Below, piece by piece: positions 51,825-57,838 of a DNA stretch of 64,000 bases. Position 1 is the stretch's first letter, and each line of letters starts with the position of its first letter. The notes under the pieces were generated by a model. The model had not been told where the DNA came from, did not search any database, and was given only the letters and a program-made list of their open reading frames with translations. Location of the stretch: assembly GCA_002344125.1 (NCBI GenBank), contig DDTQ01000010.1, forward strand, positions 77,683-141,682. Reading direction: 5' to 3'. Origin of the DNA: Ignavibacteria bacterium UBA2360. Lineage in GTDB: Bacteria; Bacteroidota; Ignavibacteria; Tepidaquicellales; OLB5. Position numbers and translations under genes: made by a program.

Positions 51825-52205
51825 ATGAAAAAAATAATAAACGCATCTGCATTAATTTTTTTGATTGGTTTGGTAACAATTTCCTACTCACAGGAAAAGA
51901 CTTACACTGAAACCAGCACAGAAATAGTAGCTTCTGTTGGCGAGAATTTCACAATTTCACTGGAATCAAACCAATCAACAGGCTATTCATGGTCTGTTGG
52001 TATGGTAAGTGATAATGCCCAGGTAGTAGTTGCAGGAATGGATTACGATCTGCCCGAAGGCTCTAAAACAGGGCAGGGGGGAGCCGAAGTGTGGCACTTA
52101 AAAGCTGTCGCTCCGGGTTCTGTAAAACTTATGTTCTATTACGCACGGTCATGGGAAAAAGATGCTCCCGCAAAAACAGTAACATTCAATGTTTCAATAA
52201 AGTAA
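51825..52205 (+). CDS. Secreted chagasin-family cysteine-peptidase inhibitor (I42)
   Basis: All three inhibitory loops are recognisable: NQSTGYSW (L2), GQGGAEVW (L4, GxGG), ARSWE (L6, RPW-like). Confidence 0.75.
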   Translation: MKKIINASALIFLIGLVTISYSQEKTYTETSTEIVASVGENFTISLESNQSTGYSWSVGMVSDNAQVVVAGMDYDLPEGSKTGQGGAEVWHLKAVAPGSVKLMFYYARSWEKDAPAKTVTFNVSIK

Positions 52206-52214
52206 TAACAAAAA

Positions 52215-52240
52215 GCTTCCCAAACAAAAGTTTGGGAAGC
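52215..52240. repeat. TTCCCAAAC-N4-GTTTGGGAA hairpin (copy 4 of 5)
   Basis: gcttcccaaac-aaaa-gtttgggaagc, 10 nt after the I42 stop. Confidence 0.85.
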
Positions 52241-52255
52241 AGTTATTTCAATCCT

Positions 52256-52281
52256 GTTTCCCAAACTCCAGTTTGGGAAAC
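52256..52281. repeat. TTCCCAAAC-N4-GTTTGGGAA hairpin (copy 5 of 5)
   Basis: gtttcccaaac-tcca-gtttgggaaac, 10 nt after the stop of the minus-strand rhodanese gene. Confidence 0.85.
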
Positions 52282-52290
52282 AATAGTACT

Positions 52291-52836
52291 TTACTCCACA
52301 GATGTCCCTTCAAACTCAATTCTTGTATCGTTTACACTTAATATTTCATTCAGCTCGTAAACATTCTTATAGCCGTATCCGTAAAGATTCAGGTATGTTG
52401 GAATGTTAAGAGCAAGCGTAATACCTTTATCACCGCCGCCTTTAATATCTATTTTAGGCATTGATATTTTTGTAGGGAAATATTCAATATCATCTATAAA
52501 ATTGTTATTGCAGTAAATGAGTATTTTAGTATCGAATGAAGGAATTATCTCCGCAAGCGTTTCCTGTGTGAAATCTGAAAAATTGAGATTTACCGCTCCC
52601 TTAACGTGCTTACTGCTGTACATTGTATTTGATCTGGCGTCAAGAATTACCACATTTTCCTGCTTAGCAAGTTCAGTAAAATCTTCGATACTCAATAATC
52701 TTGCCTGCCTGTGCTCCTTTGCTTCAGCCATCAGCTTCTCGTAGTCTTCGAAGCTCACAAAAGGTGATTTTTCCTGTGCGCAGGCTGCAATTGCATAAAA
52801 TGCAAATAGCACTAAAATTAAGTTGATTTTTCTCAT
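52291..52836 (-). CDS. Secreted rhodanese-like domain protein
   Basis: Signal peptide present. VVILDARSNTMYSSKHVKGAVNL and an active-site-position Cys in ILIYCNNNF (atypical loop, no Arg). Confidence 0.7.
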   Translation of the reverse strand: MRKINLILVLFAFYAIAACAQEKSPFVSFEDYEKLMAEAKEHRQARLLSIEDFTELAKQENVVILDARSNTMYSSKHVKGAVNLNFSDFTQETLAEIIPSFDTKILIYCNNNFIDDIEYFPTKISMPKIDIKGGGDKGITLALNIPTYLNLYGYGYKNVYELNEILSVNDTRIEFEGTSVE

Positions 52837-52968: not shown

Positions 52969-53295
52969 TTATATCTTGAATTTTCGCCTGGATAGCTTAA
53001 TTGTAAAATGAATTCTGGAATCAAGCGCATTGAATACTTTCATAATCGTATCAAAGCGGGCGTTTGTCAGGTTATTTTCAAGTTTGGATATCTGTGATTT
53101 TTGCACACCTACAAGTTTACCTAATTGACCCTGTGTCAATTTCCGCTTACGTCTTGTCTGTTTGATAGCTTCACCAAGGAACTCGAGTTTTAACTCGTAC
53201 TCAAAATCTTCCCTCCGTTTGGTTCCTCTTTTGCCGATAAATTTATCAGTCAATTCATCTAGGGTATATAATTCCAGTTTGCCTTTTTTATGCAT
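52969..53295 (-). CDS. XRE-family HTH antitoxin (HigA-like)
   Basis: HTH KLTQGQLGKLVGVQKSQISKLENN. The gene starts 2 nt after the toxin stop. Confidence 0.8.
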   Translation of the reverse strand: MHKKGKLELYTLDELTDKFIGKRGTKRREDFEYELKLEFLGEAIKQTRRKRKLTQGQLGKLVGVQKSQISKLENNLTNARFDTIMKVFNALDSRIHFTIKLSRRKFKI

Positions 53296-53297
53296 AA

Positions 53298-53633
53298 TTA
53301 TTTTAAATTAAAATATTCTTTTCTTAAAGTTTCTGCATGTTCAATTTCTGCTTTGGGAGTTTTTGATGTCTTCTTAATTAAGCCGTGAGTATTTACCACA
53401 AGAATATTTTCCTTATTTGTTTTATCCCAAAATGCAAATAGTCTGTAGTAGGTTTTGTTGTAAATTGTCCTGAACTCCCATATGTCTTCGGTTAATTTTT
53501 TAAATAAACCGGGATCGTTAAATAACTGAGCTTTTCGAATATTAAATAGTATCTTATCTCTGGATTTTACATCTATCGATTCAAGAAAATCTTTAGCTTC
53601 TTTCAGGAAAAGTACATTAAACTTACTATTCAT
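53298..53633 (-). CDS. RelE/ParE-superfamily toxin (Gp49/HigB-like)
   Basis: FLKEAKDFLESI..DIWEFRTIYNKTYYRLFAFWDK...LVVNTHGLIKKTSKTP is typical of the Gp49-like toxin family. The toxin-first gene order matches higBA. Confidence 0.8.
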   Translation of the reverse strand: MNSKFNVLFLKEAKDFLESIDVKSRDKILFNIRKAQLFNDPGLFKKLTEDIWEFRTIYNKTYYRLFAFWDKTNKENILVVNTHGLIKKTSKTPKAEIEHAETLRKEYFNLK

Positions 53634-53695: not shown

Positions 53696-53726
53696 ATAAA
53701 AAAGCCGGATAAAGAATATATCCGGC
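53696..53726 (-). terminator. Rho-independent terminator closing the zinc-ribbon gene string
   Basis: On the minus strand: gccggata-tattctt-tatccggc followed by tttttt. It lies 30 nt after the stop at 53756. Confidence 0.75.
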
Positions 53727-53755: not shown

Positions 53756-54364
53756 TTATGCCACCTCAATCCCCAAAACTGCATCCTTAAGCCTGCCGTT
53801 AGGCTGTTTGTAGAACGGTACGCCAAGTACCTGGTAGCTCTTTACGTTAATATCGTAATTGATATTTCTCACAGTATCGCTTTTTTCAGCTTCTATTGAA
53901 AGGAATAAAAATTCTGCTATCTTTTTAGCGTCATCCTTGGAAAAATTAAATCCTGTAAGCTTTACATTATACTTCTGCGGTGAAGGTACCGCGTTCTTCA
54001 GAGTATAATTAACTCCAATGTTCTTTGCGGATTCTATAGGCATCCAGAATGCAGGCACATAAAATTTAACGTCGCCTTCGGTCTTATTGGCTCCGCCAAA
54101 AAGATTTGATATCCACCCGCCGGATGAATCGCGTGAGTGGATTCTTACATGCGCATCAACAAGCCAAAAGCCTTTATAAACCAGCTCGCCATCGCCCTTA
54201 ACCAGGGGAGCGGCAAAGTTCACTTCCATTGGAACCAGCTCATCGTTTACAATTTCCCAGCCGTTTCCGCAGCTTGAGCAATATACGATGCTGTCATTCA
54301 TTTCAACGGTTAGCCCGCTATCGCATGATTTGCATTTTACAGCTATTAATTTAAAATCTTCCAT
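53756..54364 (-). CDS. Zinc-ribbon protein paralogue 3 (soluble; no TM)
   Basis: CKSC-x14-CSSC at the N-terminus. Shares aromatic beta-rich motifs with the two upstream genes (LVYKGFWLV, FYVPAFWMP, YQVLGVPFY). The ATG at 54364 with GAAGG upstream is preferred over the GTG at 54388, which lies inside a repeat module. Confidence 0.7.
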   Translation of the reverse strand: MEDFKLIAVKCKSCDSGLTVEMNDSIVYCSSCGNGWEIVNDELVPMEVNFAAPLVKGDGELVYKGFWLVDAHVRIHSRDSSGGWISNLFGGANKTEGDVKFYVPAFWMPIESAKNIGVNYTLKNAVPSPQKYNVKLTGFNFSKDDAKKIAEFLFLSIEAEKSDTVRNINYDINVKSYQVLGVPFYKQPNGRLKDAVLGIEVA

Positions 54365-54372
54365 AACCTTCA

Positions 54373-54423
54373 ATCCTGAGCGAAGCACCTGCCTGAACTG
54401 CCGTTACGGCAGGCAGGTTCTCA
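54373..54423. repeat. Nested repeat between zinc-ribbon genes 2 and 3
   Basis: atcctgagcgaagca-[cctgcctgaactgccgttacggcaggcagg]-ttctca. The inner 30-mer (54388-54417) is 29/30 identical to the reverse complement of 22300-22329. Confidence 0.85.
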
Positions 54424-54486
54424 TCAGTAGATCCTCAAATTTAAATTTATTTAATAAAAAATGTTTACCTGCAGCCTGCAGTTGCA

Positions 54487-55572
54487 TTATCTCCTCAAGA
54501 AGCTCGAAGCAATACTCGCCACATCAACAACATTCATACCCGATGCCATGTTTTTTACAGTATTGCCGCCTTTGCCTCCAAGAAAACTCTTTTTTGGCGC
54601 GGCAACAATTCCTGTGCCTTCTTCTATTTCGCCGCCATATCTGAACTTCTTATAACCCCACATCATAATAATTATACCGAATATCAGTGCAAAGATATAT
54701 ACAACCAGCGCCGCTTTCGCGCTGTCACCATCTCCAATTATACCGAAAATTCCAAAGAAAGTAACAAGATATGTCCCAACCGCTGTTCCAAAAATACCCG
54801 CAACAGCGCGGTATAAATTATTACCCGGCGCCTTGCCGTAACATATCGTACCATCTTCGCCATCTACCACTACCTGGTAAGTTCTGCCTTTATATAAATA
54901 TCTTACTACCCATAACGGGTAATATACTATAGATACATTAGGTCTGACAAGATCGTTATGCTGAAACGTGATCTGATCAACCTTAACGGAATTAACAGCC
55001 TCATTTACAAACTGTTCCTTAGCTATATCGGTCACTTCACGTTCAGATGAAATAATATTAAAAAGCATTCCCTCTGATTGCAGCTCTTCAAAATTTATGG
55101 GACGCATTTCATCGCCTGCAAGGTTTACCTTGCGCACGCCAAGCTCCGCGACATCACATGCCGCAAATGTCCTGTCAAACGGTTTCTGAATTTTGCGCTC
55201 AACATCAACATAATATGTAGTTGTCCTGCCGTTAACCGTTTGCGTGCGGCGCTCTTTTCCGAATACCCAGCCAATAACATCAGCTCTTACGCGCCAATAG
55301 GGTATGTAAACCAAAAACGCGTCATCAATCTTTGCGTCATTTTTCAGCCCGCGCGCCTTGGCAAGTCCCTTGCCAAGCCAATTGAACATATTCTGTATAG
55401 CTATATTCCGCTGTATCTTTCTCGGAACGTAATACTTAACAACGCCATCTACACCTTTTGTCAGCAAAAGAGTGCCGCAGTACTTGCAGTTGAAAGTTTT
55501 TACTCCTTCTCTTAAGTCAAGTTCTCCTGCGCAGGCGGGACACGTTATTCCTTTTAATACTTTTTCAGCCAA
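54487..55572 (-). CDS. Zinc-ribbon membrane protein paralogue 2 (two C-proximal TM helices + Gly-rich tail)
   Basis: CPAC-x14-CKYC. Motifs FLVYIPYWRV and SIVYYPLWVVRYLYKGRTYQVVVDGEDGTI. TMs LYRAVAGIFGTAVGTYLVTFFGIFGIIG and AALVVYIFALIFGIIIMMWGY. TTG is the only available start. Confidence 0.7.
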   Translation of the reverse strand: MAEKVLKGITCPACAGELDLREGVKTFNCKYCGTLLLTKGVDGVVKYYVPRKIQRNIAIQNMFNWLGKGLAKARGLKNDAKIDDAFLVYIPYWRVRADVIGWVFGKERRTQTVNGRTTTYYVDVERKIQKPFDRTFAACDVAELGVRKVNLAGDEMRPINFEELQSEGMLFNIISSEREVTDIAKEQFVNEAVNSVKVDQITFQHNDLVRPNVSIVYYPLWVVRYLYKGRTYQVVVDGEDGTICYGKAPGNNLYRAVAGIFGTAVGTYLVTFFGIFGIIGDGDSAKAALVVYIFALIFGIIIMMWGYKKFRYGGEIEEGTGIVAAPKKSFLGGKGGNTVKNMASGMNVVDVASIASSFLRR

Positions 55573-55614
55573 TTTACAATAAAATTATAGATTCGATTAT
55601 TATTTTTACTCATT

Positions 55615-55655
55615 TCCCCCCTCTCCTCTCAGGAGAGGGGATGGGGGTGAGGTTT
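55615..55655. repeat. CCCCTCTCC-loop-GGAGAGGGG..GGGGTGAGG repeat module between zinc-ribbon genes 1 and 2
   Basis: cccccctctcctctcaggagaggggatgggggtgaggtttt, ending 5 nt from the stop of 55660..56463. Confidence 0.8.
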
Positions 55656-55659
55656 TAAT

Positions 55660-56463
55660 TTACACTTTCTTCGCTATCACATACGCCATCACTATCAGAG
55701 GTATTGATACAAGACCGTAAGCGAATATCTTAAAGAACTCCGCTGTAAGCAAAGCTTCTTCTATGTAGCTGCTGTTTAGTGCGAAACCTATTACGTAACA
55801 CAATATACTGGTTATCACAAAAGCGGCAATGCTGAGTCCAAATAGAATTCTGAACGGTGCTTCGCTCTTTGCGGGATAGATATTTGAGTACACTTGTCCC
55901 GAGGAAGCTTCAACCAGCGCAGTGTAACTCTGCCCGCCAAAATTGTAATAAAACTGGTAGAACGGTATGTGAACCAGTGCGGCTTCTTTGACAATATCAA
56001 GGCTTACGCCGGAACCCTGCAGCCATGCCTGGGCTGAATCATACAGCACATCCGGCTTTACGATCTCATGGTCATTGTGGATATTTTTATCATAGAACTT
56101 AAGTGCACCGGCAGGTATCTGCAGCTTCTTTATCTCAGAAACGGATGTGCTTGCCGCAGGCTGCAGAAATATCTTGTCACCTGAGCCGTCCTTGGTCTTA
56201 AAGTACCACACAGGGAAGTAATAGAACTCAGTCTTTACTATCTGCGCTTTCTGGTCAAGATCTTTAACAGTATGATTACCCGACATCCAGCGTTTTAAAT
56301 TGCCTTCTGCCTCATTGGGTTTGAAGTTTGAATGTATAAGGTAATGGAATACTACTTTTCTTTTATCTAAAAATAAAGCCGATGCGCAAAAAGGACACTC
56401 TATGAAAGTTTCATCCTGTTGTACTGTAACATCAGCTCCGCATTGTGTACATTTTATTTGCAT
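55660..56463 (-). CDS. Zinc-ribbon membrane protein paralogue 1 (two C-terminal TM helices)
   Basis: CTQC-x14-CPFC. Motifs FYYFPVWYF and ALVHIPFYQFYYNFGGQSYTALVEASSGQV. TMs FRILFGLSIAAFVITSILCYVIGFAL and FFKIFAYGLVSIPLIVMAYVIA. Confidence 0.75.
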   Translation of the reverse strand: MQIKCTQCGADVTVQQDETFIECPFCASALFLDKRKVVFHYLIHSNFKPNEAEGNLKRWMSGNHTVKDLDQKAQIVKTEFYYFPVWYFKTKDGSGDKIFLQPAASTSVSEIKKLQIPAGALKFYDKNIHNDHEIVKPDVLYDSAQAWLQGSGVSLDIVKEAALVHIPFYQFYYNFGGQSYTALVEASSGQVYSNIYPAKSEAPFRILFGLSIAAFVITSILCYVIGFALNSSYIEEALLTAEFFKIFAYGLVSIPLIVMAYVIAKKV

Positions 56464-56471
56464 TTTTTCAA

Positions 56472-56650
56472 CTCTGAGCGCAGCGTCTGCCTTATAGTGC
56501 TATGCACGAGAAGGAAGAGTCTCTTCGCTATTAATGTAATACTTTAATAAAAAAATGAATTGACACGACCTCTTGACTGCCACTGCAGTTTAGGTCGTGG
56601 ATACTAGAACCAAAAAATAACCGGGGCTTTCTCCGAAGGAGTGCCTTTGG
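56472..56650. repeat. Repeat mosaic in the 360-nt spacer between the SPFH gene and zinc-ribbon gene 1; bounds approximate
   Basis: ctctgagcgcagcg..gaaggaagagtctc (56472-56524). cacgacctcttgactgccactgcagtttaggtcgtg (56564-56600) plus ccggggctttctccgaaggagtgcctttggcaagccc, similar to 19674-19745. Confidence 0.75.
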
Positions 56651-56771
56651 CAAGCCCAAGTTTAACATCAAATATCTAAAATAATGAAAGTTCTGAATAA
56701 TAGAAATGATTTCTTTATTCTTAAAACACAGTAGCACAGAAATTTGCTTGACCTTTAGGTCTGTCTGTGTA

Positions 56772-56808
56772 TAATAAAATTAAGAAGGACAGACAAAAAT
56801 GTCTGTCC
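56772..56808 (-). terminator. Terminator-like hairpin 17 nt after the SPFH stop (possibly partial/attenuating)
   Basis: Minus strand: ggacagac-attttt-gtctgtcc followed by ttcttaattttattat (T-rich but interrupted). Confidence 0.45.
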
Positions 56809-56824
56809 CACTATTAATTTGTTC

Positions 56825-57838
56825 TTACAGTTTCGAAAGCAGATCTTTTTTCTTTGTATCAAATTCCTCCTGGGTCAGCGCGCCTGCATCCTTAAGCTTT
56901 GCGAGCTTTTCTATGGTTGCAAGTACATCATCCTGTGACTGCTGAACAGGTGCCTGCTGGTTGTTCTGCTGCTGGTTCTGTGGATTCTGCTGATTCTGCT
57001 GCATGGAACCCATCATCATGTTAGCCATTGTCATACCGGCTCCCAAGCCAACACCTAAACCTGCTGTGCCGCCTGCGCCTTCATTTTCCGCCGCTTTTTC
57101 CATTGCCATAGCGGTCTTGAATTTCATATAGTTATCCAGATTTCCGATAGCGCCCATTGAGCTTCTTTCGTTGATCTTTTCCTGTACTTCATCCGGCGGA
57201 ACTATACCTACTATTATTAGATCCGTCAGCTCAATACCCATTGCATTGAAGAAATCTGTGACTTCTGCCTTTATGCCGGTCTCTATCTGCGGATAGTATT
57301 GGCCCAGATCAAATACTGTTTTCAGATTCTTGCCGAGTACTGTATTTAATTTAGATACAATTGAATCCCTTAAGTAATCTTCAATCTCATTTGTGGTATA
57401 TTTACCCTGTGTACCGACTATTTCATTAATAAAAAGCTGGGGATCCTTAACCCTCATTGAGAATTTACCCGAAGCCCTCAACTGAACGAATGATAATTCA
57501 GTATCGCGGAAGTTAATGGGTGATTTGGTTCCCCATTTAAGATCAATGAATTTCTTCATTGATACATAATATACCTGCGCCTGGAACGGTGAGTTAAACC
57601 CGAATGGCAGTGAAAGCAGTTTAGTTAAGAATGGAATGTTAGCCGTTGTTAATGTATGGCGGCCCGCGCTGAATACATCAAGCGCTTTTCCGTCTTTGTA
57701 AAATACCGCTGCCTGCGTATCCTGCACAATAAGCTGCGCGCCCATTTTAATATCTGTGGAACCGGCCTGCGGTTCGCGGTGAACCAGCTCTTTGCCTGAT
57801 TCATCAAAAAATTGGATTATCTCTAATGCATTACCCAT
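56825..57838 (-). CDS. Soluble SPFH (band-7) domain protein of the YdjI/COG4260 type with Q/N-rich linker and C-terminal SHOCT domain
   Basis: N-terminus [60 protein letters not shown] is typical of TM-less SPFH proteins. It is followed by [43 protein letters not shown], then [29 protein letters not shown] (SHOCT consensus). Confidence 0.8.

Follow-up and report, generated by a model that had tools for sequence, protein, structure and literature searches.

A candidate PspA-free variant of the SamG/SamI membrane module in Ignavibacteria bacterium UBA2360

Introduction

To our knowledge, SamG and SamI (YdjG and YdjI) have been studied so far in Bacillus subtilis only, as accessories of PspA. 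Their genes lie with those of PspA and YdjH in the pspA-ydjG-ydjH-ydjI (pspA-ydjGHI) locus. In this study, we analyzed a 64,000-nucleotide stretch of the genome of Ignavibacteria bacterium UBA2360 (contig DDTQ01000010.1, positions 77,683 to 141,682; hereafter the window), in which four adjacent genes, named A, B, C, and D in order, encode an SPFH protein and three zinc-ribbon proteins. The locus is probably a variant of the SamG/SamI membrane module that has neither PspA nor the TPM protein, with a function that we infer.

In B. subtilis, SamI (YdjI) is soluble; its membrane foci require YdjG and YdjH, and SamI is needed for the formation of PspA foci (PMC8581546). Loss of SamI results in unrestrained SamGH signalling (bioRxiv 10.64898/2026.02.06.704340). 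YdjG consists of two zinc ribbons, a YpeB-related domain, and a transmembrane (TM) segment (Ravi et al., PMC11237479). Control by sigma-W is a Bacillus feature of pspA-ydjGHI. We aimed to establish how the Ignavibacteria locus compares with this and other SPFH systems, how widely its genes are kept together, and which readings of its function the comparison favors.

Materials and methods

A hidden Markov model (HMM) of the C family was built from 59 diverse sequences. One genome per species was scanned with the C-family motif, which gave 352 matches. The best 80 of the 352 were analyzed, and all were from Ignavibacteriota or from metagenome-assembled genomes (MAGs) of the Fibrobacteres-Chlorobi-Bacteroidetes (FCB) group. 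The synteny set consisted of these 80 loci and two more (82). Open reading frames (ORFs) were called in each locus and compared with the window proteins by BLASTP; the denominators given below are the loci with room for the gene in question. Distant members of the C family were followed in eight further contexts, from Anaerolineae/Chloroflexi, one deltaproteobacterial MAG, and metagenome contigs.

The B. subtilis pspA-ydjG-ydjH-ydjI locus was recovered from metagenome contigs via a degenerate version of the published ydjG 5' primer sequence (PMC8581546). The primer sequence as published had no match among viral contigs. The structure of C was modelled with AlphaFold, and the model was compared with known and predicted structures using Foldseek.

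Results

Gene A and the SamI family

The four genes are co-oriented ORFs on the minus strand and span positions 53756-57838, which agrees with the preliminary description of this stretch, made from its letters alone. The product of gene A (56825..57838) is a YdjI/SamI-type SPFH protein of 337 amino acids and is soluble. Residues 27-229 matched Pfam Band_7_1 (PF13421) with 210.2 bits (E=3.5e-62, cut-off 24), and residues 308-334 matched SHOCT (E=4.3e-9). No 19-residue window of A reached a Kyte-Doolittle value of 1.6 (maximum, 1.56). The linker after the SPFH domain, read from the translation, is rich in Gly/Ala/Met and then in Gln/Asn. Pfam, hydropathy, and translation thus bear out the earlier view of an SPFH protein without TM helix that ends in a Gly/Ala/Met stretch, a Gln/Asn linker, and SHOCT.

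A shared 32% identity with B. subtilis YdjI over 257 amino acids (E=2.5e-28 with BLASTP; E=1.5e-34 with phmmer). YdjI has the same linker, and its last module is a zinc ribbon where that of A is SHOCT; the Pfam scan found no YdjI-type zinc finger at the C-terminus of A. Alternative C-terminal modules also occur in other YdjI-like SPFH proteins: SHOCT in Ralstonia, and GYF_2 in Vibrio and Paracoccus. Band_7_1 and SHOCT were present in all 40 A orthologs scanned. SHOCT had been taken for a special oligomerization tail added to this protein. That view was not sustained: Band_7_1 is the commonest partner of SHOCT, the single direct test of SHOCT oligomerization was negative (PMC3581485), and the YdjI-like protein of Ralstonia carries SHOCT as well. 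A search of PDB sequences with the A-family profile gave no solved structure at E<=0.01. Judged by these matches, A is assigned to the soluble SPFH proteins of the SamI type.

Zinc-ribbon proteins B, C, and D

Genes B and C encode members of the YdjG/SamG superfamily. B (55660..56463, minus strand) has 267 amino acids, with a zinc ribbon, an alpha/beta region of two modules that lies in the cytoplasm, and a TM hairpin at the C-terminus. C (54487..55572, minus strand; TTG start) has 361 amino acids, with a ribbon, two alpha/beta modules, a TM hairpin, and a tail. Gene D (53756..54364, minus strand) encodes a soluble zinc-ribbon protein of 202 amino acids with its own domain of about 150 amino acids beyond the ribbon. 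The D ORF extends to a GTG at 54388; because aligned orthologs begin with M-x-DFKL, the most likely start is the ATG at 54364, which gives 202 amino acids.

A CxxC-x14-CxxC motif opens all three proteins (C5/C8/C23/C26 in B; C11/C14/C29/C32 in C and D). Hydrophobic segments lie at residues 202-232 and 241-265 of B and at residues 257-280 and 282-308 of C. Beyond the second segment, C has a conserved FRYGGE(I/V)EEG motif and a tail of about 50 amino acids in the cytoplasm. D had no hydrophobic segment in the Kyte-Doolittle scan. Motif and hydropathy therefore support what had been read from the letters, namely a ribbon in each protein, a TM pair in B and C, and a soluble D. B and C are tail-anchored inner-membrane proteins, and their zinc ribbons and alpha/beta domains face the cytoplasm.

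Residues 51-337 of YdjG matched the C-family HMM (E=1e-25) with both signature motifs aligned. YdjG also matched C of the window (E=3e-9 over 292 amino acids, BLASTP) and B (E=5.5e-5, phmmer). Together with the match between YdjI and A, these results indicate that the resemblance to ydjGHI, first suggested in the preliminary description, is genuine homology, and they place A in the SamI family and B and C in the SamG family.

B and C are clearly paralogous (E=4e-7 in the window, BLASTP; E=5e-16 between their orthologs on metagenome contig L085). D gave weak matches with B and C by BLASTP. In hhalign, the D and C families were aligned with a probability of 97.7% (E=1.3e-12) over 72 columns, which comprise the ribbon and the first Y-x-P-F-W strand. 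Thus, of three supposed zinc-ribbon paralogs, B and C stand as such and D is related over the ribbon and first strand only. D appears to be a diverged, truncated relative of B and C with its own C-terminal domain, that is, a partial member of the YdjG family. The C-family HMM recovered B, C, and D, with B at E=3e-28.

A protein collection at 90% identity contained 1120 homologs of C and 442 of B; among the matches listed there was no Pfam domain, and the named ones were all Ignavibacteria. Among 1.84 billion cluster representatives, the C-family profile found 1684 clusters (50% identity) at E<=0.001 and 346 at E<=1e-10. The globular parts of B, C, and D matched no family in Pfam, NCBIfam, PHROGs, or PADLOC, with sub-threshold zinc-ribbon matches only. 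DUF4178 (PF13785), one of the domains proposed beforehand, was absent from all three in Pfam even at E<=1; Band_7_1 and SHOCT, also proposed, were the ones found in A. The SamG-type protein thus belongs to a large family for which Pfam has no model. In a metagenomic protein of 558 amino acids (P0277), the C-family module (residues 238-553) comes after part of a protein-kinase domain (its C-terminal portion) and an AAA_16 segment. This arrangement reflects either fusion to a signalling protein or an artefact of gene calling.

It is extremely improbable that the zinc-ribbon proteins are nucleic-acid-binding or translation-related factors. Automatic names point in that direction ('RNA polymerase subunit RPC12/RpoP', 'Zn-ribbon RNA-binding protein involved in translation', and 'ribosomal protein L37AE'), as do weak matches of the ribbons to RpoP, LysW, and S27e, but the matches cover the ribbon of about 30 residues only and lie far below the family thresholds, whereas the other 85-90% of each protein is a YdjG-type domain and B and C are membrane-anchored.

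Comparison with described SPFH systems

The locus resembles pspA-ydjGHI in that its genes are adjacent and co-oriented. A shares with YdjI the Band_7_1 domain, the lack of a TM anchor, and the two-part linker that leads to a small module at the C-terminus. B and C share with YdjG the N-terminal ribbon, the alpha/beta domain with its Y-x-P-x-W and VDG-x-x-G motifs, and the C-terminal membrane anchor. Unlike in the B. subtilis locus, pspA and a TPM-domain ydjH are absent from the window, the SPFH gene is the first instead of the last of the set, and the SPFH protein ends in SHOCT instead of a zinc ribbon. There are three diverged YdjG-like paralogs with one ribbon each, compared with two ribbons in YdjG; B and C have a TM hairpin, compared with a single TM helix, and D is soluble.

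A tblastn search of plasmids with C gave a match on the Vibrio coralliilyticus plasmid NZ_CP048695, directly downstream of a Band_7_1 SPFH gene, and the same pair of an SPFH and a YdjG-like gene was present on the Paracoccus ferrooxidans plasmid pFER4. Both partner proteins matched the C-family HMM (E~1e-30), and YdjG matched the Vibrio partner with E=9e-36 (BLASTP). As in the window, the operon lacks PspA and TPM genes, and its Band_7_1 SPFH gene directly precedes one that encodes a zinc-ribbon membrane protein of the C family. The plasmid pairs differ in that the SPFH protein ends in GYF_2, the partner is single with two ribbons and one TM helix, and a D-type protein is lacking. Pairing of a Band_7_1 SPFH gene with a SamG-family gene thus recurs in three unrelated lineages, in at least three architectures: Bacillus, proteobacterial plasmids, and Ignavibacteria.

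The locus is also similar to the PspA-free polyamine-type operons with band-7 and SHOCT domains (Ravi et al. 2024, PMC11237479; Ralstonia), in which Band_7_1 plus SHOCT is followed by a zinc-ribbon membrane protein. The Ralstonia operon consists of DUF350, SPFH-SHOCT, and zinc-ribbon-DUF4178 genes, whereas the Ignavibacteria locus has no DUF350 or polyamine genes. The Ralstonia partner matched DUF4178 (E=1.2e-30), in contrast to B, C, and D, and matched the C-family HMM weakly (E=3e-7; best stretch, 5e-6). At the level of general logic, the locus follows HflK/C-FtsH, QmcA-YbbJ/NfeD, and flotillin-NfeD, in which an SPFH oligomer is encoded beside the membrane partner that it scaffolds; A differs in belonging to the Band_7_1 branch and having no membrane anchor of its own, and the locus has no NfeD or FtsH partner.

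The preliminary description had found no PspA or TPM gene in the window, and searches with the B. subtilis proteins and Pfam agree. In phmmer, B. subtilis YdjH found no YdjH-like (TPM) ORF among the six-frame ORFs of the 64-kb window. Pfam scans of ten flanking or size-compatible proteins gave rhodanese, amino-acid permease, histidine kinase, and other families or none, with no PspA or TPM. As it has neither PspA nor a TPM protein, the locus is not a Psp operon. Our literature search found no description of an SPFH-SHOCT protein with two TM-hairpin SamG paralogs and a soluble third.

Conservation in Ignavibacteriota

The preliminary description had left the idea of a functional unit to be judged by gene order in related genomes, and in Ignavibacteriota the order is very highly conserved, with hardly any exception. 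B lay directly upstream of C in 75/75 loci, D directly downstream of C in 73/73, and A directly upstream of B in 68/69, with L055 as the exception. Identity to C of the window ranged from 95% down to 55%. The module was present in every one of the best 80 species genomes in a fixed order, and identity tracked relatedness. It is thus inherited like a core gene set and is not island-like.

A further gene, named U, encodes an all-helical protein of about 175 amino acids and precedes A in 41 of the 62 loci of the more distant clade (L001:5596-6126, L002:4121-4645, and 39 further Ignavibacteriota loci). The protein carries an invariant IPGYDGY...RGYSG motif. A search of the six-frame ORFs with a U HMM found no U in the window, and none of the 20 loci in the clade of the window had it. 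U has been lost from this whole clade. It had no Pfam family, and a profile search of PDB gave nothing meaningful. The position of U corresponds to that of pspA in the Bacillus operon. U as a cryptic PspA was considered and rejected (hhalign probability, 0.3%).

The B-C-D cassette outside Ignavibacteriota

Outside Ignavibacteriota, the B-C-D order occurred without a nearby SPFH gene in all eight contexts. Each context contained a gene of the B family (240-276 amino acids), a gene of the C family, and a gene or domain of the D family. The genes often overlapped or abutted, an arrangement that suggests that translation is coupled within B-C-D only. The genes that flank C in these contexts matched the B-family HMM with E=1e-55 to 1e-91 and the D-family HMM with E=1e-31 to 1e-43. 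The Anaerolineae orthologs were 40% identical to B (E=5e-69) and about 26% identical to D (E=2e-20). No further neighbor recurred across the eight contexts. Since the best 80 of the 352 scan matches were all from Ignavibacteriota or FCB MAGs, the spread beyond the phylum rests on these eight metagenomic or MAG contexts.

Triplication of the zinc-ribbon protein had been read as a local event in the service of the SPFH protein. The data point the other way: B-C-D is an older cassette that is found in other phyla with no adjacent SPFH gene, so B-C-D is the core, and the SPFH gene (and U where present) is a lineage-specific addition in Ignavibacteriota. Likewise, tethering of an SPFH oligomer, the function first proposed for the zinc-ribbon proteins, may be one part of what the cassette does and cannot be its whole function.

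Single polypeptides that join C to D were present in Anaerolineae and in further metagenomic lineages. They have 499-616 amino acids (about 600 in most); residues 3-326 are C family (E~1e-98) and residues 412-600 are full D family (E~1e-35 to 1e-40). The fusion proteins are P0281 (= L092:1613-3427), L092:5861-7681, P0409, P0413, P0414, P0287, P0390, and P0356. L092, an Anaerolineae MAG, has two tandem copies of the set of B and C-D. Such a fusion makes sense in terms of topology, given the cytoplasmic end of C and a soluble D, and it is good evidence that C and D act together. Neither the SPFH-free B-C-D cassette nor the C-D fusion was described in the literature that we searched.

Predicted structure of C

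With an alignment of 59 diverse sequences, AlphaFold gave a model of C with a predicted local distance difference test score (pLDDT) of 89.8 and a predicted template modelling score (pTM) of 0.79. A shallow alignment of Ignavibacteria only gave a pLDDT of 59.6, and Foldseek matches of that model were not meaningful. The better model comprises the ribbon, a helix (55-66) with a long beta hairpin (81-137), a second helix (177-195) with a second sheet (200-250), and the TM hairpin (252-312). Foldseek found no significant match to the PDB (best, E=0.044), and the C-family profile found zinc ribbons only among PDB sequences.

The second module of C ends in a '...VVVDGEDG...' pattern, and residues 178-243 had a sub-threshold match to PepSY (E=0.086). 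The domain of YdjG has been described as YpeB-related and NTF2-like (Ravi et al. 2024, PMC11237479). The PepSY match and the VVVDGEDG pattern are consistent with this published YpeB/PepSY-like assignment and do not establish it.

Two giant-virus proteins, A0A5K0UBJ7 of Yasminevirus and A0A3G4ZSZ8 of Edafosvirus, matched the C model in BFVD (Foldseek, E=6e-9 and 3e-7, respectively). Both are named 'DnaJ-like subfamily C member 3'. The model comparison suggests that the C fold also occurs in proteins of eukaryotic viruses, possibly fused to a J-domain.

Spacers and terminators

A terminator-like hairpin (53696..53726, minus strand) closes the string after D, as had been noted; its arms are GCCGGAT-loop-ATCCGGC at 53704-53726, and TTTTTT follows. 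The hairpin scan found a second one directly 3' of gene A (56786..56809, minus strand), with 10 pairs (GGGACAGAC-loop-GTCTGTCC) and a T-rich tail. The first 66 nucleotides of the A-B spacer, which include this hairpin, were matched at 93-97% identity in L004 and L005; the matches in L007 and L014 were shorter.

The A-B spacer of the window is 361 nucleotides long (56464-56824); its length ranges from about 0 to 690 nucleotides across the loci. Because the gap holds another terminator-like hairpin, A and B-C-D may be two transcription units and not one string. The whole spacer had a folding z of -5.5. It contains a conserved structured non-coding element (56564..56657, minus strand) with the hairpins GGGCTTGCC...GAAAGCCCC and CACGACCT...AGGTCGTG, both of which lead into a T run. 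When aligned with L003, L006, L009, L010, L011, and L020, the outer stems were kept, and loop size and inner sequence varied. The element had no Rfam match. It could be an attenuator or leader of B-C-D, or a small RNA. A dispersed repeat was considered and rejected, as the element is present in a single copy in the window and is specific to the A-B locus.

The defence question and the neighboring toxin-antitoxin pair

A pair of genes at 52969-53633 (minus strand), directly after D, encodes a Gp49/HigB-type toxin (111 amino acids) and an HTH_3 antitoxin (108 amino acids). The preliminary description had called this pair compatible with a small defence/stress islet, as weak evidence, and had entertained infection sensing. 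A pair follows D in about 3 of the 73 loci (L012, L013, and weakly L008). As equivalents were found in these loci only, the pair is taken for a mobile insertion and not for part of the module.

In PADLOC-DB 2.0, A and C had no match at E<=1, and B and D matched at E=0.004-0.03 over the zinc ribbon only; none was significant. No relative of the C family was found in the 2.9 million viral contigs of IMG/VR. On these grounds and given the core-like inheritance, the idea of defence or infection sensing was not borne out. An anti-phage or abortive-infection system would have the SPFH protein sense infection and the TM-hairpin zinc-ribbon proteins disrupt the membrane, with the toxin-antitoxin pair as part of the islet. 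The position of that pair, the Vibrio plasmid pair beside a TIR-domain gene, and alignments of the long beta hairpins of the C model to pore-forming toxins in Foldseek are in its favor, but those alignments were not significant (probability <=0.1), presence in the best 80 species genomes is core-like and in fixed order, the toxin-antitoxin pair is rare after D, and the GC content of the region is not atypical. We consider such a system very unlikely.

On the Vibrio plasmid (L086; NZ_CP048695, 1797-6796), the pair of SPFH-GYF_2 and YdjG-like genes adjoins a divergently transcribed cluster, which encodes a TIR-domain protein, a protein with a TRAFs-binding domain, and two hypothetical proteins. 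This neighborhood may be defence-related.

Further along the window, one intergenic stretch of about 100 nucleotides (52172-52293, minus strand), between the gene at 51825-52205 and the rhodanese gene, had several weak, sub-gathering Rfam matches (E=0.02-0.8). They probably reflect a stable hairpin or terminator.

Discussion

The reading that we hold to be probable is that the locus is a variant of the SamG/SamI (YdjG/YdjI) membrane module without PspA and without a TPM protein. D would associate with B and C, and the resulting heteromeric complex, at the inner face of the membrane, would recruit A there, as happens to SamI in B. subtilis. Once recruited, A may form an SPFH oligomer and act as a scaffold for, or a restraint on, the B-C-D complex when the membrane or envelope is perturbed. 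We infer the contacts, the stimulus, the direction of regulation (brake or scaffold), and the output alike. Any PspA/IM30 (ESCRT-III-type) effector would be encoded elsewhere in the genome or not used.

Several points weigh against this reading. In two-hybrid assays with the B. subtilis proteins, YdjI contacts YdjH (TPM) and not YdjG (PMC8581546), and the window has no YdjH. A B. subtilis PspA query found no match at E<=1 among the six-frame ORFs of the window (phmmer), so the effector arm of Bacillus is missing or encoded elsewhere. Up to three terminator-like hairpins in the A-B spacer make co-transcription of A with B uncertain. B-C-D also occurs without an adjacent SPFH gene, in the eight outside contexts and in the Ignavibacteria genome L055; therefore, the cassette does not need A.

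These points lead to an alternative, in which B-C-D is an autonomous three-protein membrane complex that does its job without an SPFH protein, and A (and U in most lineages) is a long-standing neighbor, or is co-regulated and uncoupled. The cassette found alone, its overlapping or abutting genes in other phyla, and the variable A-B spacer with the hairpins of the window all suit this alternative. However, A could hardly have stayed beside B in 68/69 deeply diverged loci without selection, Band_7_1 SPFH and YdjG-family genes are independently paired in Bacillus, Vibrio, and Paracoccus, and the pair is functionally linked in B. subtilis (PMC8581546). We regard full autonomy as possible but rather doubtful, and retain the PspA-free SamG/SamI module as the probable explanation.

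A broader proposal is offered tentatively, with less confidence than the module reading itself. B-C-D might be a widespread, unnamed three-component inner-membrane complex that serves as an autonomous sensor or scaffold of membrane state in Chloroflexota, Ignavibacteriota, some Deltaproteobacteria, and others, with a cytoplasmic fold that has no solved relative. SamG of B. subtilis would then be a reduced single-gene derivative, and the Band_7_1 SPFH protein would be a brake or scaffold that has been recruited repeatedly.

By itself, the finding reveals no new biological principle, and with a function that is deduced from comparison its relevance to the field of SPFH proteins and envelope stress is moderate. 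It indicates that the most conserved form of the SamG-type family is a three-gene cassette that is able to exist without SPFH, PspA, and TPM proteins. The natural C-D fusion is a guide to subunit contacts. The cassette and its SPFH-linked forms provide simpler, PspA-free systems for asking what SamG-like proteins sense and what a soluble SPFH protein does to them.

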